NCBI GenBank assembly: GCA_036273515.1
Contig: DASUHM010000049.1
Span: 963 to 64,962, forward strand
Length of the DNA: 64,000 bases
Origin: Gaiellales bacterium
GTDB taxonomy: Bacteria; Actinomycetota; Thermoleophilia; Gaiellales; JAICJC01
Reading direction: 5' to 3'
The stretch's first letter is position 1. The number at the start of each line of letters is the position of its first letter. Shown in pieces: positions 4,417 through 57,164 of this stretch. The position numbers and the translations under genes were made by a program. The notes under the pieces were generated by a model. That model had not been told where the DNA came from, did no database searches, and saw nothing but the letters and a program-made list of their open reading frames with translations.

Positions 4417-5484
4417 ATGTTCGGCAAGTACGCCCTAACGCTTGGCCTCGCCATCACCGCCGCAGCGGTCCTCGGCGGGTGGTTCGGCGGCGCCGCCTCC
4501 GCGGCGCCGGCTCCGCGCGTCGCCCACCCCGCCGTCTTCAACCGCACCTCGGCGAGCGAGGCGCCCCAGCTCGGGGCGGCGGTGAACGACGTGATGCTGG
4601 CCAACGCCGGCCCGCGCTACGTCCGTACGCTGCTCGCGCACTACCGCTCGATCACGCCCGAGTGGGAGATGGAGATGAGCCAGCTCGAGCCGTCCCGCGG
4701 CCGCTTCACGTTCGCGAGGGCCGACGGGATCGTCGCCTTCGCCAACCGCCACAACATGCCCGTCCGCGGCCACACGCTGGTCTGGGACGAGATGGTGCCG
4801 AGCTGGGTGCTGCACGGCGACTGGACGCGGGCGCAGCTCGAGAGCGTCCTCCACACCTACATCACCACGGTCGTCTCGCACTACCGCGGCAAGGTGGAGG
4901 AGTGGGACGTCGTGAACGAGCCGCTCACCACCGACGGCCACATGCGCCAGAGCATCTGGGAGCGCGTGATCGGCCCCGGCTACGTTGCGCTCGCGTTCAG
5001 GTGGGCGCACGCGGCCGACCCGAACGCGCGGCTCTTCCTGAACGAGTACGGCGCCGAGTGGAACGACCCCAAGGAGCACGCGCTCTTCCAGCTCGTGTCC
5101 GGCCTGAAGGCGGCGGGCGTCCCCATCGGCGGCGTCGGCTTCCAGGCCCACCTGCTCCTCGACGCGCATCCGCCCCAGGCCGAGCTGACCGGTGTCCTGC
5201 GCCAGTTCGCCGCGCTTCGGCTGCGGCTCGAGATCACCGAGCTCGACGTCCGCGCCGGCGGCTCGGCGCCGCTCGCCACGCGGATGGCCGAGGAGGCCGC
5301 GATCTACAGGACCGTCGCCGCCTCGTGCGCCGCCGTGCGCGCCTGCGCCCGGGTGACGACCTGGGGCATCACCGACGCCGCCACCTGGATCGGGACGGCC
5401 AACCGGCCGCTCCCGTTCGACGCGCACTACCAGCCGAAGCAGGCCTGGTACGCGCTGCGCGCCGGCCTCACTCCTCGCGGCTGA
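4417..5484 (+). CDS. Secreted glycoside hydrolase family 10 endo-1,4-beta-xylanase
   Basis: N-terminal signal peptide. GH10 acid/base motif WDVVNEP and nucleophile motif ITELDV. Confidence 0.85.
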   Translation: MFGKYALTLGLAITAAAVLGGWFGGAASAAPAPRVAHPAVFNRTSASEAPQLGAAVNDVMLANAGPRYVRTLLAHYRSITPEWEMEMSQLEPSRGRFTFARADGIVAFANRHNMPVRGHTLVWDEMVPSWVLHGDWTRAQLESVLHTYITTVVSHYRGKVEEWDVVNEPLTTDGHMRQSIWERVIGPGYVALAFRWAHAADPNARLFLNEYGAEWNDPKEHALFQLVSGLKAAGVPIGGVGFQAHLLLDAHPPQAELTGVLRQFAALRLRLEITELDVRAGGSAPLATRMAEEAAIYRTVAASCAAVRACARVTTWGITDAATWIGTANRPLPFDAHYQPKQAWYALRAGLTPRG

Positions 5485-6895
5485 CGACGTCGCGCACCAG
5501 CTCGTGGATGGCGTCCGTCTTCTCGGTGCGCTCCCACACCCGGCCGCCGTCGCGGAAGTACATCCACGTGCCGACGGCGATCGGCACCGACCACCACAGC
5601 CAGTACACCCACAGGAAGACCGGGTTCACGCGCAGCATGTAGTGCAGCCGGTCGCGGCGGTGCTCGAGGACGAGCGCCGTTCGCCGCCAGGTCGACGCGT
5701 AGGTGATCGACATGCTGATGCAGTAGAGGACGATCGTCGAGGCCGCGAGCAGGATCAGCCCGACCGGCAGCGGGCTCGTGCCCTCGTACCACACCCACAG
5801 CGCCCAGATGCCGATCGGCACGCCGAATGGGTTCACGGCCAGCGACAGGCAGGGCAGGAAGTTCGTCCACGCCCGGATGCGGTCGCGCCGGCGCATGCCC
5901 ATCAGCCGCAGGCACGAGCCGAGCGACTGGTAGAAGCCGCAGATCCAGCGCTTGCGCTGGGTGAGGCCGCGGTGCAGGGTGAGCGGCACCTCCTCGATCA
6001 GCGGGCTCGCGATCACGCCCAGGCGGCGGCCGTTCACCCACAGGCGCATGCCCACCTCGGGATCCTCGATCGTCACCCAGGGGTTGAAGCTGCCCATCGC
6101 GATCAGGTCGGGGGCGTGGTAGAAGAGCCCCTTGCCGAGCACCCAGTAGGGGTGGCGGCCGCGGGCGCTCAGGTGCGGGTAGCGCATCCCGTCCCAGCAC
6201 ATGTGGTCCATCGCGTGCCATGACGCGGGCCAGGTGTCGAGCAGGTTGCCGGCGACGTTCGTGCTCTGGATGACGTCGAAGTGCGGGGCGCCGGCCGCGC
6301 CGGCGAGCAGGTGGTCGTGCGGCGGCACGCTGTCGGCGTCGATGTAGTTCAGGAGCCAGTCGTCCTCGGTCTCTTCGGCGTCGAGCGTATAGAGCGCATA
6401 GACCAGCTGGCGGGTCTTCTTCGGCGGCAGGTCGCGGTCGCCGGCGGTGGCGCCGACGTGCCACCAGTACGCCTGCTGCGTCCGATCCCAGCTCTCCCAC
6501 ACCGGGTCCCACCCGGGGTCGGTGGTGGGGGGGACGACCAGGATCTCGAGCCACGCGAACTCGTCCTGCAGCTCCTCGAGCGCGGTGATCGTCGCGTGGT
6601 CGTCGTGGTTGGGGATGGCGACGATCCGGTAGCGGTCGCGCTCGTATTCGAGCTCGTCCAGGCCCACGAAGGTGGTGCGCATCGTCTCCGGCGGCTCGCG
6701 CAGCACCGGGTAGAGCAGCACGACCTTCGGGAGGGGGCCGGCCTCCCAGACGGCCTCCTCGTCGAGCTCCACCCAGTCGACCTTGCGGGACAGCATGTAG
6801 AGGTCGTGAACCAGCGTGATCAGGTAGAGAGCTTGAGTGACCACGAACACCACCGTCAGGACGACGGCGGTGATCGACACCGCCAGGATGGTCAC
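5468..6895 (-). CDS. Membrane-embedded family 2 glycosyltransferase (processive synthase type)
   Basis: N-terminal TM segment, GT2 core with DADS, QRKRW (QxxRW) motif, then several C-terminal TM helices. Confidence 0.8.
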   Translation of the reverse strand: MTILAVSITAVVLTVVFVVTQALYLITLVHDLYMLSRKVDWVELDEEAVWEAGPLPKVVLLYPVLREPPETMRTTFVGLDELEYERDRYRIVAIPNHDDHATITALEELQDEFAWLEILVVPPTTDPGWDPVWESWDRTQQAYWWHVGATAGDRDLPPKKTRQLVYALYTLDAEETEDDWLLNYIDADSVPPHDHLLAGAAGAPHFDVIQSTNVAGNLLDTWPASWHAMDHMCWDGMRYPHLSARGRHPYWVLGKGLFYHAPDLIAMGSFNPWVTIEDPEVGMRLWVNGRRLGVIASPLIEEVPLTLHRGLTQRKRWICGFYQSLGSCLRLMGMRRRDRIRAWTNFLPCLSLAVNPFGVPIGIWALWVWYEGTSPLPVGLILLAASTIVLYCISMSITYASTWRRTALVLEHRRDRLHYMLRVNPVFLWVYWLWWSVPIAVGTWMYFRDGGRVWERTEKTDAIHELVRDVVSREE

Positions 6896-6905
6896 GTAGG
6901 CAGCG

Positions 6906-8021
6906 TCACCGAGCGAGGCCGCGCTGCGCCAGCTCGGCGTGCGCGGCTTCGGACCGGTCGTCGGCCTCCTGCTTCCGTACCCATGCGACCAACTCTCTCA
7001 TGCCCTCGCCGAAGTCGACAGCTGCGTCGAACCCGAGCAGCTCCCGTGCCTTCGAGACGTCCGCCCAGCAGTGGCGGATGTCGCCGGAGCGCGAGGTCGC
7101 GCTGATCCGGGCCGGCAGCTCGACGCCGATGTGCTCGGCCAGCACCTCGGCCACCTCGAGCACCGACACCGGCCGGCCGGTGCCGATGTTGATCGCCTCG
7201 CCGACCGCCGCCTGCGAGGTGAGGGCGAGGACGGTGGCGCGGGCGACGTCGTGCACGTGAACGAAGTCGCGCAGCTGCAGGCCGTCCTCGAAAACGAGCG
7301 GCGGCTGGCTGTTGATGAGCCGCGAGCTGAAGATGGCGGCGACGCCGGTGTAGGGGTTCGAGAGCGCCTGCCGCGGCCCGTAGGTGTTGAAGTAGCGCAG
7401 CGCGACGACGCCGATGTCGTAGGCACGGCCGACGGCCAGGCACATGAGCTCCTGGTCGAGCTTGGAGATCGCGTAGATCGAGGCGGGCGCGATCGGGGTC
7501 GTCTCGCTCGTCGGCACCGGGATCGCGTGGGCGCCGCAGGTCGGGCAGCGCATCTCCCAGTCGCGCCGGCCGAGCTGGGCGTCGTCGCGCACGAGCGGAT
7601 GGACGATCCCGTGGTCCTCGCACCGGTAGGCGCCCTCGCCGTAGACCGACATCGACGAGGCGACGACGATCCGCCTGACTGTGTGGGGCTCGTTCGCGAG
7701 CAGCTCGAGCAGGACGCCCGTGCCGCTCGTGTTCCCGTCGACGTAGCGGGTGATCTGGTACATCGACTGGCCGACCCCGACCTCGGCGGCGTGGTGGACG
7801 ATCGCGTCGACGCCCTTCAGGGCCTTGCGGAGGGCCGCCGCGTCGCGCACGTCGGCGTGGATGAACTCGGCGTCCGTGGGGACGTGGCGGGGGCCATGGC
7901 CGTTGTGCACCTGCTCGACGAGGCGGTCGTACACGCGCACCTCGTGACCCTGATCGAGCAGGAGGTCGGCGACGTGCGACCCGATGAACCCGGCGCCGCC
8001 GGTGATGAGCACGCGTGCCAC
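6906..8021 (-). CDS. NAD-dependent nucleotide-sugar epimerase/dehydratase
   Basis: GTG at 8021 preceded by GGAG. N-terminal Rossmann motif LITGGAGFIGSH and a YxxxK-type core (YAISK). Carries a CPTCG zinc-ribbon-like insertion. The longer ORF-track version (to 8171) lacks an RBS. Confidence 0.8.
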   Translation of the reverse strand: MARVLITGGAGFIGSHVADLLLDQGHEVRVYDRLVEQVHNGHGPRHVPTDAEFIHADVRDAAALRKALKGVDAIVHHAAEVGVGQSMYQITRYVDGNTSGTGVLLELLANEPHTVRRIVVASSMSVYGEGAYRCEDHGIVHPLVRDDAQLGRRDWEMRCPTCGAHAIPVPTSETTPIAPASIYAISKLDQELMCLAVGRAYDIGVVALRYFNTYGPRQALSNPYTGVAAIFSSRLINSQPPLVFEDGLQLRDFVHVHDVARATVLALTSQAAVGEAINIGTGRPVSVLEVAEVLAEHIGVELPARISATSRSGDIRHCWADVSKARELLGFDAAVDFGEGMRELVAWVRKQEADDRSEAAHAELAQRGLAR

Positions 8022-39478: not shown

Positions 39479-40825
39479 ATGTCCATGGGTTCCTTGGGGG
39501 TGCCTGTGGCGAGGTTGCACGCGATCAACGACAGCGGGGGGAGCGGAGAGGCCGCGGAACGGCGGGCGCAGGCCCGACGGCGCAGCTCGAGCTCCCACCA
39601 GATCGAGTACCACCTGCTGCTCCTGCTCACCCTCGGGCTGGTCGCCTTCGGCCTGATCATGGTCTACAGCGCGTCGAGCGGCATCGCCGTCGTGAACGGC
39701 GCCAACCCGCTCTCGCCGCTGATGCGCCAGGGGATCTACGCCGTGCTCGGCGTCGGCTGCATGGTCGGCGCCGCCCGGTTCCGCTACAAGCGCCTGCGGA
39801 TGCTGGCGCCCCTGCTCATGCTGATGGCGCTGATCGGGCTCGTGATGGTGAAGGTGCCGGGGATCGGCGTGCGCATCAACGGCGCCGAGCGCTGGATCGT
39901 CGCCGGGCCGCTGACGCTGCAGCCCTCGGAGTTCGCGAAGCTCGCGATGGTCGTCTTCTGCGCCGCCGTCCTCACCGCGCGGAAGCGCCCGCCCCGCACC
40001 ATCAAGGAGCTCGTGAACCCGGTCGGGCTGGCCGCCCTGATCGTGTGCGGCCTGGTCGCGCTCGAGCCCGATCTGGGCACGACGATCGCGATCGCCGTCA
40101 TGGTCACGGGCGTCCTGATCGTCGCCGGCACGCCGTTCCGGCTGCTCGTCGGCACGGCCGGGATCGTCTCGGCCGGCGCCGCGCTCGTCATCTCCCAGAA
40201 CGCCTACATGCACGCCCGCCTGCTCGCGTTCATGCACCCCTGGCAGGATGCCGGTGGCAGCGGCTACCAGAACGTGCAGGCCCTGCTCTCGCTCGGATCG
40301 GGCGGCATCTGGGGCAAGGGCCTCGGCCAGGGCACCGTCAAGAACGGGTACCTGCCGGAGGCGCCGAGCGACATGATCGCCGCCGTCATCGGCGAGGAGC
40401 TGGGCCTCATCGGGATCCTCGTCACCGTGCTCGCATTCGCCGCCTTCGCGGTGCTCGGCTTTCGGATCGCGATGCGCACGAAGGACCCGTTCGGCAAGTT
40501 TCTCGCCACCGGGATCACCTGCCTCGTCACCGGCCAGGCCGTCGTGAACCTGGGCGCCGTGCTCGGCTTCCTGCCTCTCACGGGCGTCCCGTTGCCGCTG
40601 ATAAGCTCAGGCGGATCCAGCCTGATCGTGTTCCTCACCCTGATCGGGACGCTCCTGAACGTCGCCGACAGCGAGCGGGCAGTCGCCCGCAAGGCAGTGC
40701 CCGCCGATGACACCGCCGCCAGCCGCAAGCGACCCCGGCCGCAGCCCGCGGGTGCTGATCGCCGCCGGAGGAACCGCAGGCCACGTCGTGCCGTCGCTGG
40801 CGGTGGCCGCCGAGCTCACGGCTAG
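39479..40825 (+). CDS. ftsW: FtsW/SEDS family peptidoglycan polymerase
   Basis: Polytopic SEDS pattern (GLGQG..K..YLPEAPSDMI, PLPLISSGGSS). The Arg-rich C-terminal tail overlaps murG. Confidence 0.85.
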   Translation: MSMGSLGVPVARLHAINDSGGSGEAAERRAQARRRSSSSHQIEYHLLLLLTLGLVAFGLIMVYSASSGIAVVNGANPLSPLMRQGIYAVLGVGCMVGAARFRYKRLRMLAPLLMLMALIGLVMVKVPGIGVRINGAERWIVAGPLTLQPSEFAKLAMVVFCAAVLTARKRPPRTIKELVNPVGLAALIVCGLVALEPDLGTTIAIAVMVTGVLIVAGTPFRLLVGTAGIVSAGAALVISQNAYMHARLLAFMHPWQDAGGSGYQNVQALLSLGSGGIWGKGLGQGTVKNGYLPEAPSDMIAAVIGEELGLIGILVTVLAFAAFAVLGFRIAMRTKDPFGKFLATGITCLVTGQAVVNLGAVLGFLPLTGVPLPLISSGGSSLIVFLTLIGTLLNVADSERAVARKAVPADDTAASRKRPRPQPAGADRRRRNRRPRRAVAGGGRRAHG

Positions 40826-41804: not shown

Positions 41805-43147
41805 CGCTGGCCGACCGGAGGCTGCACATGATCGGGATCGGCGGCGCCGGCATGTCGGCGTTGGCCGTCGTCGCATACGCCTGGGGCGCCGACGTGTCGG
41901 GGTGCGACCGCACGCCGTCGGAGTACTCGCTGCGCCTGCGCCGGTTCGGCATCGACGTCTCGGAGGGGCACGATCGCGGCCACCTCGAGCCCGGCATGGA
42001 GGTGGTCGTCTCCTCGGCCGTGCCCGACGAGCTCGACGAGCTGGCCGCGGCGTCCGAGCTCGGGCTGCGCGTGCTGCACCGGGGCGAGCTGCTGGCCCAG
42101 CTGGTGGCCGAGCGGCGCTCGATCTGCGTCGCGGGCGCGCACGGGAAGACGACGACGACGGCGATGCTCGCCTTCGCGGCCGACCGGATCGGGCTCGATC
42201 CGACCTGGCTCGTCGGCGGCGAGGTGCCGCAGCTCGGCGGCAATGCCGGACCGGGCGGGGGAGACCTGCTGATCGCGGAGGGGGACGAGTCCGACGGCAG
42301 CTGCGCGCTCCTGCGCCCGCGCGTCGCCGTGATCACGAACGTCGACCTCGATCACCACGCTCGCTACGCGTCGGTGCACGACGTCGAGCGCCTGTTCGCC
42401 GAGTGGGTCGCGCACGTGCCCGCGGACGGGGCGGTGGTGCTCGGCGACGGCGTCGCCCTGCCGGCCGGGGCGGCGCCCGTTGTGCGGTTCGGCTTCGACG
42501 AGGGCGCCAATTGGCATATCAGCGGCTTCCACAGCGGCCCGGAGGGGTCGCGGTTCTGGCTCTCGGTGCCCGACGAGCTCCCGGTCGACGTCACCCTGCG
42601 GGTGCCCGGCGCCCACAACGCTCGCAATGCCGCCGGCGCGATCGCCGCCCTGGCCGCGGCCGGGGCGAGCGCGGCCGATGCGGCCGCGGCGCTCGCCGAG
42701 TTCACCGGCGTCGGCCGCCGTTTCGAGGTGCGCGGGCGGGTCGCCGGGGCGACCGTCGTCGACGACTACGCGCACAACCCGGCCAAGGTCGCCGCCGCCA
42801 TCGACGCCGCCCGCACGCACGCGCCGGCACGCGTGGTGGTCTGCTTCCAGCCCCACCTCTACTCACGCACGGCCGCGTCGGCGCACGAGTTCGGCGGCGC
42901 GCTGGCCGGCGCCGACGAGGTGGTCGTCACCGAGATCTACGCCGCCCGCGAGCGGCCCCAGCCGGGGGTGACCGCGAAGCTCGTCGTCGACGCCCTGGCG
43001 GAGCGGCGGCCGGGGATGCCGCTCGCCTACATGCCGGGACTGGGCGACGCCGCCGCCTACCTGCGCGGGCGCGTGCGCGAGGGCGACCTCGTCCTCACCG
43101 TCGGCGCGGGCGATGTCCGCAGCGTGGGCGACGAGCTGCTGCGATGA
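41801..43147 (+). CDS. murC: UDP-MurNAc:L-Ala ligase
   Basis: ATGA overlap. GIGGAGMSALA and AGAHGKTTTT motifs. Confidence 0.9.
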   Translation: MTLADRRLHMIGIGGAGMSALAVVAYAWGADVSGCDRTPSEYSLRLRRFGIDVSEGHDRGHLEPGMEVVVSSAVPDELDELAAASELGLRVLHRGELLAQLVAERRSICVAGAHGKTTTTAMLAFAADRIGLDPTWLVGGEVPQLGGNAGPGGGDLLIAEGDESDGSCALLRPRVAVITNVDLDHHARYASVHDVERLFAEWVAHVPADGAVVLGDGVALPAGAAPVVRFGFDEGANWHISGFHSGPEGSRFWLSVPDELPVDVTLRVPGAHNARNAAGAIAALAAAGASAADAAAALAEFTGVGRRFEVRGRVAGATVVDDYAHNPAKVAAAIDAARTHAPARVVVCFQPHLYSRTAASAHEFGGALAGADEVVVTEIYAARERPQPGVTAKLVVDALAERRPGMPLAYMPGLGDAAAYLRGRVREGDLVLTVGAGDVRSVGDELLR

Positions 43148-44037
43148 GCGCCGTTCCCGCCTGCGTCGAGCCGGACTACCCGGTGTCGCGGCTGACCACG
43201 GTCGGCACGGGCGGCCGGGCGCGCTTTCTTGCCCGGCCCGGCACCGGCGCCGAGCTGGCCGGGGTGCTGAGCTGGGCCGATGCGGGCGCGCTCGACGTGG
43301 CCGTGGTCGGGCTCGGCTCGAACCTGCTGGTCGCCGACGAGGGCTACGACGGCGTCGTCCTGCGCCTGGCCGGCGGCCTCGCCCGGATCGAGCGCGACGG
43401 CGAGCGGGTCGTGTGCGGCGGCGGCGCCTCGCTGGCCGCCGTCGTGAAGCGGGCGACCGGCTGGGGCCTCTCCGGCATCGAGTTCGGATGCGCCATCCCG
43501 GGCACGGCCGGCGGCGCGGTGCGGATGAACGCGGGCGCGTACGGCGGCGAGCTGCGTGACGTGCTCGACAGGGCGGTGGTGGTCGGCGCCGGCGGCGAGC
43601 GGGCCGGCGGGCCGGACGAGCTCGGCATGCGCTACCGGCACTCGAACGTCGGGCCGCGCGAGGTCGTCGCCGAGGCGGTGCTGCGGCTGCGGCCCGACGA
43701 CACGGAGCGGATCCGGGCGACCGTGGCCGACATGCAGCGGCGCCGGCGCGAGGCCCAGCCGGCCAAGGTGCGCACGTTCGGGTCGGTGTGGAAGAACCCG
43801 GGCGGCGACCTGTCCGCCGGGCGCATCCTCGAGGAGTGCGGGCTCAAGGGCTTCACGGCCGGCGGCGCCCGCATCTCGCCGGTGCACGCGAACTTCATCG
43901 AGAACACGGGCGATGCTCGCTCCGCCGACGTGATCGCGCTGATGCAGGAGGCGCGGCGGCGGGCCCGCGAGCGCTTCGGCGTGGAGCTCGAGCACGAGGT
44001 GCAGATGCTCGGGCCGATCGGGCTTTCAGATGGTTGA
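43144..44037 (+). CDS. murB: UDP-N-acetylenolpyruvoylglucosamine reductase
   Basis: ATGA overlap. FAD-binding GLGSNLLV. C-terminal MurB domain (GSVWKNP, ISPVHANF). The last codons and stop lie inside the repeat at 44028. Confidence 0.9.
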   Translation: MSAVPACVEPDYPVSRLTTVGTGGRARFLARPGTGAELAGVLSWADAGALDVAVVGLGSNLLVADEGYDGVVLRLAGGLARIERDGERVVCGGGASLAAVVKRATGWGLSGIEFGCAIPGTAGGAVRMNAGAYGGELRDVLDRAVVVGAGGERAGGPDELGMRYRHSNVGPREVVAEAVLRLRPDDTERIRATVADMQRRRREAQPAKVRTFGSVWKNPGGDLSAGRILEECGLKGFTAGGARISPVHANFIENTGDARSADVIALMQEARRRARERFGVELEHEVQMLGPIGLSDG

Positions 44038-44132
44038 TCGGCAGCTCCCGTGACAGCCGCAGCCCACGAGCGCCCCGAACGCCCGCCAACAGCCTGACGT
44101 CCGGGCGCGCGCGAGCTGCCGATCAACCATCT
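44028..44132 (-). mobile_element. 105-bp MITE-like element (truncated family member) between murB and ftsQ
   Basis: Perfect 20-bp terminal inverted repeats, AGATGGTTGATCGGCAGCTC (44028-44047) and its complement (44113-44132). The interior matches elements at 56915 and 51550 in reverse orientation, including an exact 17-mer at 44086-44102 = revcomp of 56944-56960. Confidence 0.6.
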
Positions 44133-44180
44133 TGGCGCCTGCCTGATCCGGCAGGATCCATCCGCCGTCCGGCGAACTGG

Positions 44181-44975
44181 ATGGACATGGCAGCTGCCCA
44201 CGTCGACCCTGCGCTGGTGCTGCGCCGGCGGGCGCTCCGCCGATCGGAAGGCCGCCGCCGGCTGGCGGTGCTGGTCGGGGTGATCGCGATCGTGCTGCTC
44301 CCGCTCGGCTGGTGGGTCCTCGAGAACTCGTCGATCTTCGCCGCCTCGCAGGTGGCCGTCACCGGGGCGACGCCCGAAGTGGACGCGCTCGTTCGCGCCG
44401 CGGTCGTCCACGACGTCGCCGGCAAGAGCCTCCTCAAGGTCGACGCCTCGTCGCTCGCGGCCCAGATCGAGGCCATCCCCGACGTGAAGAGCGCGAGCGT
44501 CGACCGCGCGTTCCCGCACACCGTCGCCGTGTCGATCGTCATGGAGCGGCCGGCCGCGCTCGTGCGCGCCGGCAAGGCGAGCTACGTCGTCTCCGTCGAC
44601 GGCCGCGTCCTGCGCGCCGCGAAGAAGGCCTCCGCCACCATGCCGCGGCTCGTGCTGCCGCCGAGCTCGCAGCCGGCCGCCGGGCGTACCGTCGACTCGG
44701 CCCAGATGCGGTCGGCCCTGCGTGTCCTCGCCGTCGCGCCGCACCGGTTCCCCGCGAGCATCGCGAGGCTCAAGAAGATCGTGGCGTCGCCGGGCGGCGT
44801 CGTGGCGGTGTTCGGCCACGGGCTGCAGGTGCGCCTGGGCACCGCGGGGTCGCTCGACCTGAAGCTCCACGTCGCCGCCCGCGTGCTCGTCCGGATGGGC
44901 GATTCGATCCGCCGCTCGGTGGCCTACGTCGACGTGTCGGCGCCGGCCCGGCCGGCCATCGGCTACAAGAAATGA
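44181..44975 (+). CDS. ftsQ: Cell division protein FtsQ/DivIB
   Basis: Basic N-terminus, TM helix, POTRA-like VAVTGA...V, FtsQ-type C-domain. Position before ftsZ. Confidence 0.75.
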   Translation: MDMAAAHVDPALVLRRRALRRSEGRRRLAVLVGVIAIVLLPLGWWVLENSSIFAASQVAVTGATPEVDALVRAAVVHDVAGKSLLKVDASSLAAQIEAIPDVKSASVDRAFPHTVAVSIVMERPAALVRAGKASYVVSVDGRVLRAAKKASATMPRLVLPPSSQPAAGRTVDSAQMRSALRVLAVAPHRFPASIARLKKIVASPGGVVAVFGHGLQVRLGTAGSLDLKLHVAARVLVRMGDSIRRSVAYVDVSAPARPAIGYKK

Positions 44976-50104: not shown

Positions 50105-51558
50105 AGCTCATCTACGAGAAGTCGCGCGCGGGCCGGCGGGCGGGCCGCATCCCCGATCCGGGCGTCCAGGTCGCCGAGGTGCCGGCGGAGCTGGCGCGCA
50201 CCACCCCGCCGCGGTTGCCGGAGCTGGCCGAGCCTGAGCTCGTGCGCCACTACACCGAGCTCTCGACGCGGACGTTCGGGATCGACACGGGCTTCTACCC
50301 GCTCGGCTCCTGCACGATGAAGTACAACCCGCGCATCAACGAGCGTGCGGTCGGCCTGCCCGGCTTCGCCGACCTGCACCCCCACCAGGAGGACGAGGGC
50401 GCCCAGGGCGCGCTCGAGCTGATGTGGCGGCTGCAGGAGATGCTGGCCGAGGTGGTCGGCCTCGATGCGGTCACGCTCCAGCCGGCAGCCGGGTCGCAGG
50501 GCGAGCTGACCGGCCTCACGCTCATGCGGGCCCACTTCGCGGACCGCGGCGAGGACCGCACGGAGGTGATCATCCCCGACACCGCCCACGGCACCAACCC
50601 GGCCAGCGTCGCGATGGCGGGCTACACGCTCGTGCGCGTGAAGACCGACGTGCGCGGCAACGTCGACGTCGACGACCTGCGCGGCAAGGTGGGGGAGCAC
50701 ACGGCGGGGCTCATGCTGACCAACCCGTCGACGCTCGGCCTGTTCGAGGAGCGGATCTCCGAGATCGCCGACATCTTCCACTCGGCCGGCGCGCTCCTCT
50801 ACTACGACGGCGCCAACCTGAACGCCGTGTGCGGCATCTCCCGGCCGGGCGACATGGGCTTCGACATCGTCCACTACAACCTGCACAAGACGTTCTCGCA
50901 GCCGCACGGCGGCGGCGGGCCGGGCGGCGGGCCGGTGGCAGTGCGGCGCGACCTCGAGCAGTTCCTGCCGGTGCCGGTGGTCGTCCGCGACGGCGACACT
51001 TTCCGGCTCGAGAGCGACCGGCCGAAGACGATCGGCAAGGTGCGCGGGTTCGGCGGGCCGTTCGGCGTCTTCGTGCGCGCCTACGCGTTCATGCGCATGT
51101 GGGGGCCGGGCCTGCGCGACATGTCCGAGGTGGCCGTCCTGAACGCGAACTACGTGCTGGCGCGGCTGAAGGGCGCATACGACCTGCCCGTCGACCGCCA
51201 CTGCATGCACGAGTTCGTCGTCTCGGCCCGCACCCTCAAACGCGAGCACGGGATCACGGCGCTCGACGTCGCCAAGCGGCTGATGGACCACGGGTTCCAC
51301 CCGCCCACGATCTACTTCCCCCTGATCGTGTCCGAGGCGCTCATGATCGAGCCGACCGAGACGGAGACGCGCGAGACGCTCGACGCGTTCTGCGAGGCGA
51401 TGCTCGCGATCGCGCAGGAGGCCGGCGACGATCCGCAGATGCTGAAGGACGCGCCGCACACGCGGCCGGTGACCCGGCTCGACGAGGCCGAGGCGGCCAA
51501 GCGCCTGCTCGTACGCTACGGGTTCGACGAGCACCCGACGTCCGGGCTAGATGAATGA
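50101..51558 (+). CDS. gcvPB: Glycine dehydrogenase (decarboxylating) subunit 2
   Basis: ATGA overlap. [11 protein letters not shown], and the PLP-lysine context [16 protein letters not shown]. The last codons and stop lie inside the repeat at 51550. Confidence 0.9.
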
Positions 51559-51748
51559 TCCCACACCTCTGCGCACCTGGGCGCCCGGCTGTGAGGGGTG
51601 TTCGGCGTGCTGGTGGGGCTGCGGCTGCGAACCGTCGCATCGCTGTGTCCTCGGTCGCGCCCATACAACCAGGTATGAGCGCTCCCTGCGTCCTCGCGCT
51701 GCCCGGTTCGCAGCCGCCCAGGACACACCGGGCGTGGAATCAGTCATC
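51550..51748 (+). mobile_element. 199-bp MITE-like element filling the gcvPB-HAD intergenic gap
   Basis: Terminal inverted repeats GATGAATGATCCCAC (51550-51564) and GTGGAATCAGTCATC (51734-51748), 13 of 15 complementary. Flanked by TA on both sides. Collinear similarity to 56915-57112. Confidence 0.6.
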
Positions 51749-51751
51749 TAG

Positions 51752-54946: not shown

Positions 54947-54999
54947 GGAGCGATCGTAGTCGGCGGGCCTTCCCGGCGCGGCTGTGAGACACCCGTTAC

Positions 55000-55477
55000 G
55001 TGGACGTGACCTGGACGTCGCGGAACGGTCTGCACTGTGACCTGGAGAGCGTGTCCAGGACAGGCGCCGAGGCCAACCTGTACAGCTACGCCGCGGCTAT
55101 CAGCGCCGACGGCCGCTACGTGGTGTTCAACTCCGGCGCCACCAACCTGGTGCCCCACGACACCAACCCGCGCACCGACGCGTTCGTGCGCGACCGCCGC
55201 GCCGGGTGACGACTCGCATCAGCGTCTCCACGACCGGGGCCCAGGCGCAGGCGCGGTCGCCAGGCCAACGCGGAATGCAGCGCACCTCCGGCTGACCCGC
55301 CACGGCCGCGACGTCGTCTTCTCCTCGCCCGCCTCGACGCTGGTCTCCGGCGATACCAACGGCCAGACACCAGTCTTCTCCTCGTGGGCCGGCAACCTGG
55401 TGTCGAACGACCGCAGCCCGGGCCCGGAGGTGTTCGTGCGCGATCGGACCTGCCCTGAGGGATTCACTCTAGACTGA
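55000..55477 (+). pseudogene. Decayed PD40/TolB-like beta-propeller repeat gene remnant
   Basis: Repeat units ISADGRYVVFNSGATNLVPHDTNPRTDAFVRDR, TTRISVSTTGAQAQA, and GRDVVFSSPASTLVSGDTNGQ...VFVRDR occur in three different frames with stops between them. No signal peptide or credible start. Confidence 0.55.
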
Positions 55478-55483
55478 CCGGCC

Positions 55484-56923
55484 GTGTCGTCCCGTCCCGT
55501 CTGCGTCCGCATGCCGCCCAGCCCGACCGGGCTCTTCCACGTCGGCACGGTGCGCACGATGCTCTTCAACTGGCTCTTCGCCCGCGGCCGCGGCGGCAGG
55601 GTCGTGCTGCGGTTCGAGGACACGGACGTCGCCCGCTCCACCGAGGCCGCCGTCGAGCACGCCGAGGCGGTGCTGCGCTGGCTCGGGATCGACTGGGACG
55701 ACGGGCCCTACCGGCAGACGCAGCGCTACGACCTCTACCGGGCCGCCGCCGAGGACCTGATCGCGCACGGCAAGGCCTACCGCTGCTACTGCACCGAGGC
55801 CGAGCTGGCCGAGGAGCGAGCCCGCCGCCAGGCCGACGGCCGGCCGCTGATCTACAGCGGCCGCTGCCGGCACGCAGCGGCGGCCGAGCTCGAGGCGCTC
55901 GCCGCGGAGGGCCGGCCCGCGGTCGTGCGCCTGGCCCTGCCGGCGTCCGGCACCACCGTCATCGAGGACGTCGTCCACGGCACGGTCGAGTGGGACAACG
56001 CCCTCCAGGGCGACCACGTGATCCTGCGGTCGGACGGGTCGCCGACCTATCAGTTCGCGAACCCGTTCGACGACATCGCCATGGGCGTGACCTACGTGAT
56101 CCGCGGCGAGGACCTGATGCCGTCGACGCCGCGCCAGCTGGCGCTCTACCGCGCGCTCGACGCCCCGGAGCCGGTCTTCGCCCACCTGCCCATGGTGCTC
56201 GGGCCGGACAAGCGCAAGCTCTCGAAGCGGCACGGCGCGATCTCGGTCGAGGAATTCCGCGACGCGGGCGTGATCGCGGATGCGCTCGTGAACTACCTGG
56301 CGCTCGTCGGCTGGAGCTTCGACGACCACACGAACTTCATGACGCGGCCCGAGCTGATCGAGCGGTTCACGCTCGAGCGGGTGACCAAGAGCCCGGGCGT
56401 GTTCGACCCGGAGAAGCTCGAGTGGCTGAACGGCGAGCACCTGCGCGCGCTTGCGCCCGAGACGTTCGTGAAGGAGCTCCAGGACTACCTCGTCTCCGCG
56501 GCCTCGCCGCTGGCCGACCAGCCGGAGCAGGTTGCCGAGGCGGCGCCGCTCGTGCAGGAGAAGATGCGCGTGCTGGGCCAGTTCCCGCGCCTCGCCGGGT
56601 TCCTGTTCGGCCCGCCGGAGCGCGATCCGGCCGCCTGGGAGCGGGTGGGCAAGGACGAGCGCGCGCCGGCGTCCCTGCGGGCCGCCCGCGAGGCGCTCGC
56701 CGAGGTCGATCCGTGGACGGCCGAGGCGATCGAAGCGGCCCTGCACGCCGCCTGCGAGCGGCAGGGCGTGAAGCCGCGCGCGCTCTTCATGCCGGTGCGG
56801 GTCGCGCTCACCGGGAGCACCGTCTCGCCGGGGCTGTACGAGAGCCTGGAGCTGGTGGGCCGGGACGAATCGCTCGCCCGGCTCGACGCTGCGCTCGCCG
56901 ATCTCCCCGCCGTCGATGATTGA
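55484..56923 (+). CDS. gltX: Glutamate--tRNA ligase
   Basis: Class I motifs: a HIGH-type PSPTGLFHVG and a KMSKS-type KLSKRHG. The last codons and stop lie in the repeat at 56915. Confidence 0.9.
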   Translation: MSSRPVCVRMPPSPTGLFHVGTVRTMLFNWLFARGRGGRVVLRFEDTDVARSTEAAVEHAEAVLRWLGIDWDDGPYRQTQRYDLYRAAAEDLIAHGKAYRCYCTEAELAEERARRQADGRPLIYSGRCRHAAAAELEALAAEGRPAVVRLALPASGTTVIEDVVHGTVEWDNALQGDHVILRSDGSPTYQFANPFDDIAMGVTYVIRGEDLMPSTPRQLALYRALDAPEPVFAHLPMVLGPDKRKLSKRHGAISVEEFRDAGVIADALVNYLALVGWSFDDHTNFMTRPELIERFTLERVTKSPGVFDPEKLEWLNGEHLRALAPETFVKELQDYLVSAASPLADQPEQVAEAAPLVQEKMRVLGQFPRLAGFLFGPPERDPAAWERVGKDERAPASLRAAREALAEVDPWTAEAIEAALHAACERQGVKPRALFMPVRVALTGSTVSPGLYESLELVGRDESLARLDAALADLPAVDD

Positions 56924-57112
56924 TTCCACCTCCCCGCGAGCCTGGACGTCAGGCTGTTGGTGCGGGTTCGGACTGTTGGTTGGGGCTGCGCCTCAGCGTC
57001 TGCGTCATCGCAGACGCCTCGGACCGCGGTCAAGCGCATCCACGCTCCCTGCGTCCTTGCGCTGCTCGGTTCGCAACCGCCGAGACCGCACAGGGTCGTG
57101 GAATCGATCATC
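56915..57112 (+). mobile_element. 198-bp MITE-like element downstream of gltX
   Basis: Terminal inverted repeats GATGATTGATTCCAC (56915-56929) and GTGGAATCGATCATC (57098-57112). Internal 9-bp-stem hairpin at 56996-57017. Collinear with 51550-51748. Confidence 0.6.
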
Positions 57113-57164
57113 CAGTGAGTTTGCAGGAATCCGGCCGGGCCCGGCCGAAGGGGGAAGTCCGCCC

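Follow-up and report, generated by a model that had tools for sequence, protein, structure and literature searches.

Bacterial MITEs typically carry terminal inverted repeats and TA termini (PMC2229807). In the case of RUP, mobilisation by IS630-Spn1 has been proposed, with insertions at TA-containing target sites, and the RNA stem-loops of Correia elements have been proposed as RNase III targets at which adjacent mRNAs are cleaved (PMC2229807). The repeat family described here, one copy of which lies between murB and ftsQ, resembles the Correia/NEMIS elements of Neisseria in several respects. Its members are short and non-coding, have terminal inverted repeats and TA flanks, occur in full-length and internally deleted forms, and lie beside genes with which they would be co-transcribed. 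However, the two share no sequence similarity, the host here belongs to an actinobacterial lineage of 73% G+C, and the IHF site and outward promoter of Correia/NEMIS elements were not recognised in the family. The 105-bp form at murB-ftsQ also differs from Correia/NEMIS short forms in being a one-off deletion and not a propagating size class.

The likeness to RUP of Streptococcus pneumoniae and to MITEs of the IS630/Tc1-mariner type, such as plant Stowaway, lies in the TA duplication, the terminal inverted repeats and the non-autonomous nature of the elements. A TA duplication with a preference for CTAG is the signature of IS630/Tc1-mariner transposases, and the frequent CTA/G…C/TAG context of the family (a slash marks the element boundary) recalls this IS630 preference. 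In contrast to RUP and IS630-type MITEs, no cognate transposase was found for the family in 0.97 Mb of fetched loci, and the outer 11 nt of its repeats are conserved whereas the inner 8-10 nt vary yet stay complementary. The usual MITE pattern is reversed, in that conservation is highest in the interior core.

The MIRUs of Mycobacterium tuberculosis, as reportedly described by Supply et al. in 1997, are intercistronic and have ends that overlap the flanking stop and start codons. Like them, members of the family are intercistronic within operons, and some class B and class D copies contain a stop-to-start open frame of 53-54 codons. MIRUs, however, are tandem minisatellites without terminal inverted repeats, and the open frame in the family does not encode a conserved peptide, and the murB-ftsQ copy lacks it. 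REP/BIME palindromes can protect upstream mRNA, and the family resembles REP/BIME and REPIN sequences as extragenic palindromes that lie just after genes and in which pairing matters more than sequence. REPs, however, are 20-40 nt long, RAYT-dependent and without target duplication, whereas the family measures about 200 bp and has TA flanks.

The window analysed here is a stretch of DNA of 64,000 nt with 73% G+C. It is highly probable that positions 44028-44132 are a dead, internally deleted copy of a non-coding MITE of about 205 bp, most likely a tolerated passenger.

Results

Structure of the 105-bp segment

The segment between murB and ftsQ was described in an earlier note as a 105-bp member of a repeat family with perfect 20-bp terminal inverted repeats, and this description was borne out. 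The left repeat, AGATGGTTGATCGGCAGCTC, occupies 44028-44047 on the plus strand and its exact complement occupies 44113-44132 (minus strand), with 0 mismatches, so that the two form the ends of the segment. A 20-nt terminal inverted repeat was recovered in 0/100 dinucleotide-preserving shuffles, and the arms reach 23 nt at 96% complementarity. RNA folding gave a hairpin of -67.7 kcal/mol (z=-6.3), which is far stronger than expected by chance.

The 64-kb window was searched with an HMM based on 54 full-length members of the family, and exactly three members were found. The copy at 44028..44132 lies on the minus strand by family convention (nhmmer E=4.5e-8, model positions 2-81), and its HMM match covers 44054-44132. 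The element proper extends from G44029 to C44131, with A44028 and T44132 as leftovers of the TA flanks. The other two members are full-length copies on the plus strand. One, the 51550 element (51548..51750 by the HMM; E=8e-52), is located between gcvPB and a HAD-hydrolase gene with its CTA/G...C/TAG flanks intact, and the other, the 56915 element (56914..57113 by the HMM, with the copy itself placed at 56915..57112; E=1.5e-35), is located directly 3' of gltX. These two are 71% identical to each other.

The interior of the 105-bp segment was said to match the left third of the 56915 element in reverse orientation, and complementarity and BLAST agree on this point. Complementarity between the 37-nt segment 44075-44111 and 56935-56971 is 86%, and BLAST aligned the interior in reverse orientation with both the 56915 and the 51550 element at 78% identity over 58-59 nt. 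The same relationship therefore holds for 51550, the interior on the minus strand corresponding to the left ~60 nt of both ~200-bp elements. The exact 17-mer at 44086-44102 (reverse complement of 56944-56960) and the GGGCTGCGGCTG block common to the segment and 51550 were both present on reading the sequence.

Pfam searches confirmed the genes on either side, and the reported 143-nt gap with its long palindrome lies between them. The murB gene (43144..44037, plus strand; FAD_binding_4 and MurB_C) ends inside the element. Its TGA stop at 44035..44037 (plus strand) lies within the left terminal repeat at element position +6, one of two TGA stops in that repeat (+2 and +6), and its C-terminal codons, …S-D-G-stop, come from the junction and the terminal repeat. 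Downstream of the element the native murB-ftsQ spacer is kept at 44133..44180 (plus strand), as judged from alignment with L001, a contig from a sister population, and from comparison with relatives. This spacer includes a CGGCGAA motif (44170-44176) that is conserved upstream of ftsQ in relatives, and ftsQ itself follows at 44181..44975 (plus strand; POTRA_1 and FtsQ_DivIB_C). No terminator-like site was detected in 43700-44500, where the hairpin is followed by TTGGCGCC with no U/T tract, and no promoter-like site was detected in a scan of the murB-ftsQ locus. A true terminator or attenuator at 44028-44132 is unlikely.

The murB-ftsQ junction in distant relatives

Distant relatives were collected in a metagenome scan with MurB and covered 39-77% MurB identity, with Thermoleophilia-like sequences at 52-77%. 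In an HMM search, a family member at murB-ftsQ was absent from 31/31 of these relatives' loci. At about 22 of the readable junctions murB ends in TAG, and this TAG is followed by a spacer of 35-60 nt with the conserved CGGCGAA and then by ftsQ. In the case of L127, the closest empty relative, the text after the stop (TAGgccgcc) resembles the right flank of the element in the window, TTGGCGCC (T-T-GGCGCC). The empty sites, together with the TAG-plus-spacer junctions, indicate a lineage-specific insertion and not a conserved regulatory RNA. The proposal of an insertion into the dcw cluster between murB and ftsQ thus withstood the comparison, since the element does not recur at this junction over a wide range of lineages.

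A conserved cis-regulatory RNA of the murB-ftsQ junction, in place of an insertion, would fit the position between two essential genes and the strong fold. This explanation is very improbable, however, given that all 31 loci (MurB <=77% identity) lack the element, that the same family is found at at least 120 unrelated loci and that there is no Rfam match. The empty sites effectively refute it.

The comparison with relatives also bears on the compactness of the cluster. Nearly every other junction was described in the earlier note as a 4-nt overlap, which held for murG/murC and murC/murB (from called ORF ends) but not for ftsQ-ftsZ, where the gap is 177 nt. The implied break of tight coupling by the insertion was not supported, as the native murB-ftsQ junction in relatives is the 35-60-nt spacer. 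Because the ancestral junction was already spaced, the insertion did not disrupt a 4-nt coupled overlap.

Origin of the short form

The window FtsZ was looked up by exact sequence, which led to six JGI metagenome contigs. One of these, L005, matches the window at 99.8% identity and likewise has the element in its 105-bp form. Three others (L001, L002 and L006) share about 93.5% nucleotide identity with the window, and the proteins of this sister population are 96% (MurB), 90.5% (FtsQ) and 100% (FtsZ) identical to those of the window. L001 holds a full-length copy of about 205 bp at the identical murB-ftsQ junction (nhmmer E=8.5e-57), and contigs L002 and L006 start within the same element. Alignment of the window with L001 revealed a single clean gap of 101 nt in the window, with its junction at 44053/44054, that takes out the conserved core of the family and one side of the inner stem. 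The 105-bp copy of the window is an internally deleted remnant of a full-length copy resident at murB-ftsQ, as had been supposed from its appearance.

The presence of the 105-bp form in an independent contig, L005, demonstrates that the short form is not an assembly artefact. Assemblers can collapse palindromes, but with an identical form in L005, no such repeat in 100 shuffles and clear homology to the family, the likelihood of a chance palindrome or an artefact is negligible. Further copies of about 105 bp were absent from about 1 Mb of fetched sequence, and the form is accordingly taken as a one-off deletion. Precise excision of a nested inner palindrome was considered as its source and rejected, since the deletion is asymmetric to the inner stem.

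Outside the deletion, the two versions differ in their arms. Both arms of the window read CAGC where the arms of L001 read CAAC and CTAC, and the arms are perfectly paired in the window while those of L001 contain 2-3 mismatches. Over the retained parts of the element, the window and L001 share about 83% identity (a by-eye count on the alignment), compared with 93.5-94.5% over the flanks. The TA flanks have decayed in both, to cA…Tt in the window and gA…Ct in L001. As only remnants of TA are left at murB (cA/G…C/Tt), the TA duplication there is deduced from the TAG stop of the relatives and not seen directly. The left-junction codon in the L001 reading frame is GAG, at the position expected for TAG. 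MurB ends in …GPIGLSDG-stop in the window and in …GPIGLEMADRQLR-stop in L001, a difference between lineages that follows from the presence of the element.

The repeat family

A family census was performed by scanning 23 conserved core bases against one genome per GTDB species. The family occupies at least 120 loci, with at least 11 in one MAG, and the MAG labels among the matches listed were Gaiellales, Gaiellaceae, Gaiella, Thermoleophilaceae, Thermoleophilia and 'uncultured Actinomycetes'. Carriers of the family include OY969804.1, OY969568.1 and MFD02134.bin.2.215. Units are 105-210 bp long and have no coding capacity of their own. Class boundaries were drawn by mapping the outermost inverted repeats. 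Class A elements (~200 bp) have the termini (C)TA/GATGRTTGAT, followed by a variable stem of 8-10 nt; class B elements (162 bp) have the termini (C)TA/GTGGTCKCTCCGGG…; longer variants carry an extra palindrome; and class D elements, found inside ribosomal-protein operons, have no clean terminal repeats. A core of about 95 nt is common to all classes, and arm length over the family ranges from 18 to 27 nt.

Of 54 copies, 40 are flanked by TA on the left and 27 on the right, compared with a background frequency of 0.8% for TA. All 54 start with G and end with C (the inner G and C), whereas the outer context varies (e.g. ATA/G…C/TAT). CTAG can be read at the left end of 28/54 copies and at the right end of 22/54, and the window has roughly one tenth of the expected number of this tetranucleotide (15 vs 153). 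The combination of invariant inner G/C and variable outer bases favours a 2-bp TA duplication, often inside CTAG. A 4-bp CTAG duplication (IS5-like) was rejected, as the inner G and C never vary and the left and right ends have different outer bases.

One MAG, MFD02416.bin.1.334, has four copies at separate loci that share 98.5-99.5% identity. In L077, which is syntenic with the window and about 85% identical to it, the insertion site of the 56915 element is empty. Conversely, L077 has a copy that is missing from the window, and the orthologous site in the window holds a TA without the element.

The 0.97 Mb of fetched loci yielded neither a transposase nor an autonomous element with termini like those of the family. 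Pairs of the terminal-repeat motif 60-4000 bp apart (L013, L046 and L032) were rejected as parent elements because they are chance matches, and the one striking hit of a scan for TA-flanked inverted repeats that enclose 0.7-3 kb, in L094, consists of two inverted MITEs around an aminotransferase gene. In some class B and class D copies an open frame bridges the flanking stop and start codons, with 54 codons in L092 and 53 codons in L031. A conserved element-encoded peptide was rejected, given that L092 and L031 use different frames in the right half of the core; read in reverse, L092 is interrupted by stops in the corresponding frame.

Rfam 15 at gathering score gave nothing in the window or in 8 loci, and permissive E-values gave only weak, generic hairpin or miRNA-like matches (E 0.004 to 6). 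BLAST with a full-length copy gave no match in plasmid and phage records, and a search for a published description of the family, or of Gaiella MITEs, found nothing specific. The family is apparently a new, uncatalogued MITE-like repeat of Gaiellales/Thermoleophilia MAGs. As an abundant repeat of uncultured soil Thermoleophilia, it is one that annotation pipelines will miss or mis-call.

Insertion at stop codons

Flanking genes were called by codon-position G+C. The 3' ends of 49 genes fall exactly on a TAG made up of TA and the first G of the element, and 12 further genes end on the +2 or +6 TGA inside GATGRTTGA. All three copies in the window end their upstream gene at the +6 TGA: murB, as described above, gcvPB at 51556-51558 of the 51550 element and gltX at 56921-56923 of the 56915 element. 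The family thus alters the C-termini of housekeeping proteins, for example MurB, GcvPB and GltX.

A genome of 73% G+C keeps TA, and especially CTAG, mostly in stop codons, so that a TA-targeting element is funnelled there. As the termini provide stops in all three frames, insertions are nearly harmless, and the element can sit in an essential operon. The family illustrates how, at 73% G+C, an element that targets TA is steered onto TAG stops, with three-frame stops as a safeguard.

Conserved core and covarying stems

Covariation was assessed in 54 aligned class A copies. Each of the inner eight pairs of the terminal stem has 14-25 double-sided changes and the apical hairpin covaries as well, while the core between the stems is almost invariant. 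Paired cells amount to 96.4%, compared with 86% in shuffles and 30-40% with slid partners, and double-sided changes number 243, compared with 71 in shuffles. Several different stems occur side by side in one genome. In the terminal stem, A·C mismatches (about 38) are more frequent than G·U (about 10), in counts that are non-independent, being inherited by subfamilies. The stem complementarity may be due to selection acting on a hairpin of DNA or RNA, or to template-switch correction of quasipalindromes. Template switching at quasipalindromes can yield matched arms without selection on RNA, and homogenisation of this kind is seen directly in the window copy, both arms of which read CAGC. This pattern of conservation, with an invariant core and inner repeats that vary and remain self-complementary, is atypical of MITEs and is a counterpoint to reading the family as one.

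The stems bear on whether the family moves as a transposon at all. It might instead be a hairpin-recognised element (REP/REPIN-RAYT-like or IS200/IS605-like) or a spreading structured RNA gene, with the window copy as a core-less relic. Stem complementarity that is kept through double-sided changes, even within one genome, the near-invariant core common to classes with unrelated arms, and the lack of a transposase partner in the 0.97 Mb of fetched loci would each fit such an element. Nevertheless, the variable outer TA context with invariant inner G/C fits a 2-bp target duplication, the orthologous site without the element holds a TA, there is no Rfam match, and matched arms can arise from the template switching just mentioned. 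We regard this explanation as improbable and retain that of a TA-duplicating MITE.

A copy at rplW-rplB is orthologous in three species, with 85-90% overall identity and a near-invariant core, where the flanking third codon positions are 70-81% identical. Copies between co-directional gene pairs show an orientation bias of 24:11, or 29:11 when five ribosomal-operon copies, all read in gene direction, are added. That the ~95-nt core is a functional intercistronic RNA or DNA module, repeatedly retained by hosts and more than part of a selfish MITE, is doubtful. It is kept in view because of the covarying stems, the at least three unrelated arm types (A, B and D) and the orientation bias, and because of the exact stop-codon docking and the orthologous ribosomal-operon copies. 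If so retained, it might serve to process or stabilise mRNA, or to bridge translational coupling. The murB-ftsQ copy, in the minority orientation and with its core deleted, would then be a failed or decayed instance of the module. A functional core would make the family a case of a mobile intercistronic RNA module.

Discussion

The comparisons above suggest a history for the murB-ftsQ copy. A full-length element would have entered the TA of the murB TAG in an ancestor shared by the window organism and the L001 population. The insertion point would be the start of the native spacer of about 50 nt, …GGG CTG TA/G GCG CC…, with duplication of the TA, so that …TA/G GCG… would have become …TA(G-element-C)TA G…, after which both TA copies decayed. 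Since the element starts with G, insertion would have regenerated the TAG, and GATGRTTGA would have added TGA stops in the other two frames. The junction TAG would have decayed later, moving the MurB stop a few codons on, to the +6 TGA in the window and to a TGA eight codons past the junction codon in L001. In the window lineage, a deletion of 101 nt would then have removed the core and left the two terminal repeats with one variable arm, and the two arms appear to have been homogenised to the perfect 20-bp match. With the core lost, the 105-bp copy is not expected to undergo the transposition that is typical of the family.

The element is presumably co-transcribed in the dcw mRNA, where it would fold, between murB and ftsQ, into a hairpin of very high stability (-68 kcal/mol). 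On balance, the 105-bp copy is probably a tolerated passenger. It is possible, though less probable, that the long perfect duplex is a substrate for a double-strand-specific RNase and parts the murB-proximal from the ftsQ-ftsZ transcript, an idea that rests on analogy with Correia elements.

Selection on the hairpin is the main alternative at this locus. The remnant of the transposon could have been co-opted as an intercistronic attenuator or as a processing or stability site, in which case the balance between murB-proximal and ftsQ-ftsZ expression would depend on it. The fold is very stable (z=-6.3), its 20-bp perfect duplex is enough for a double-strand-specific RNase, and Correia elements provide a precedent (PMC2229807). 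The element has also persisted in both lineages through about 6.5% nucleotide divergence, with arms that are perfectly matched in the window and not in L001, and the copies in ribosomal-protein operons are more conserved than flanking synonymous sites. Several observations argue against a selected role at murB-ftsQ, however. The two lineages have structurally different versions, of 205 bp and 105 bp, and so have no one structure in common; divergence is faster in the retained parts than in the flanks, and the core has been lost in one lineage; a U-tract, or any terminator-like or promoter-like site, is absent from the regions scanned; and all of the more distant relatives do without the element. 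Selection on the hairpin is thus rather unlikely.

Under the preferred reading, that of a tolerated passenger, the 143-nt gap in the compact dcw cluster is a transposon relic beside a pre-existing spacer and not a dedicated regulator. One observation on the arms provides a counterpoint to that reading: their perfect match in the window, as opposed to the mismatched arms of L001, could reflect selection for the hairpin.

Repeat termini and reading frames of neighboring genes

Each of the three reading frames meets a stop codon in the termini of the repeat family, (C)TA followed by GATGRTTGA. Over the family copies, the TAG at the junction ends 49 genes and the internal TGAs of the terminus end 12. 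In all three copies in the window, the upstream gene stops at the +6 TGA of the repeat: murB at 44035-44037, within the 105-bp copy at 44028-44132; gcvPB at 51556-51558, within the 51550 element; and gltX at 56921-56923, within the 56915 element.

Class B and class D copies located between tightly packed genes are traversed by an intact frame of 53-54 codons, as in L092 (794-961) and L031 (~4940-5106). The frame starts with a GTG that overlaps, or shortly follows, the stop codon of the upstream gene and ends with a stop codon overlapping or adjoining the start of the downstream gene, a placement similar to that of MIRUs. The class B element is 162 bp long, a multiple of three, in about 20 of 22 copies. 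A conserved peptide was ruled out because the frames differ between classes.

Family copies are also fixed within ribosomal-protein operons, at rplW-rplB (L007, ~1867-2021; L031, in the copy with the through-running frame; L087, ~809-975), rpsQ-rplN (L033) and rpsJ-rplC (L016). Copies at the orthologous rplW-rplB site of three species share 85-90% identity and have a near-invariant core, compared to 70-81% identity at flanking third codon positions. This sequence comparison suggests constraint or gene conversion.

The murB-ftsQ junction in relatives

In L157, the closest MurB relative (77% identical) without a family element, murB and ftsQ are separated by a different insert of ~376 nt (446-820), which seems to include a small ORF. 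Among relatives whose MurB is 52-77% identical (L127-L153), CGGCGAA is retained about 5-20 nt 5' of the ftsQ start codon; in the window this motif lies upstream of ftsQ at 44170-44176. In many relatives, an AGGAGG-like sequence overlaps the murB TAG. Such sequences could signal translation or regulation of ftsQ.

Target sites and arrangements of the family

CTAG is approximately ten-fold rarer across the whole window than expected from its base composition (15 sites vs about 153). The 51550 element accounts for two of the 15 sites, one at each end, and another, at the ftsW stop (40822-40825), is a potential unoccupied target for the family. In L077, a syntenic relative ~85% identical to the window, a family copy is present at 793-1009, whereas the corresponding window site (54965-55470) has no copy and holds about 500 bp of unrelated sequence in its place. 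Inside this segment, a direct repeat of ~250 bp (55123-55196 / 55373-55446) codes for PD40-like repeat fragments, and the same CTAGactgacc junction ends both the segment and the L077 site.

In L094, two inverted copies (5266-5473 and 6880-7079) enclose a 450-aa class-III aminotransferase gene, an arrangement like that of a composite transposon. In some copies (L026, L040, L049, L055, L060 and L102), the core is separated from the right terminal repeat by an additional palindrome of ~60 bp (for example, CATGAGCGACCTGCTGGGTAGCAGGTCGCTCATG then accgcggcaagc), which could be another small element nested within the first.

In the terminal stem of alignment A3 (columns 13-30 / 214-231), A·C mismatches are more frequent on the core strand (about 38 cells) than G·U (about 10). 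The pairing of a left GATGA with a right CCATC, seen in many copies, accounts for most of this difference. The excess may reflect inherited subfamily asymmetry rather than a strand-specific RNA signal.
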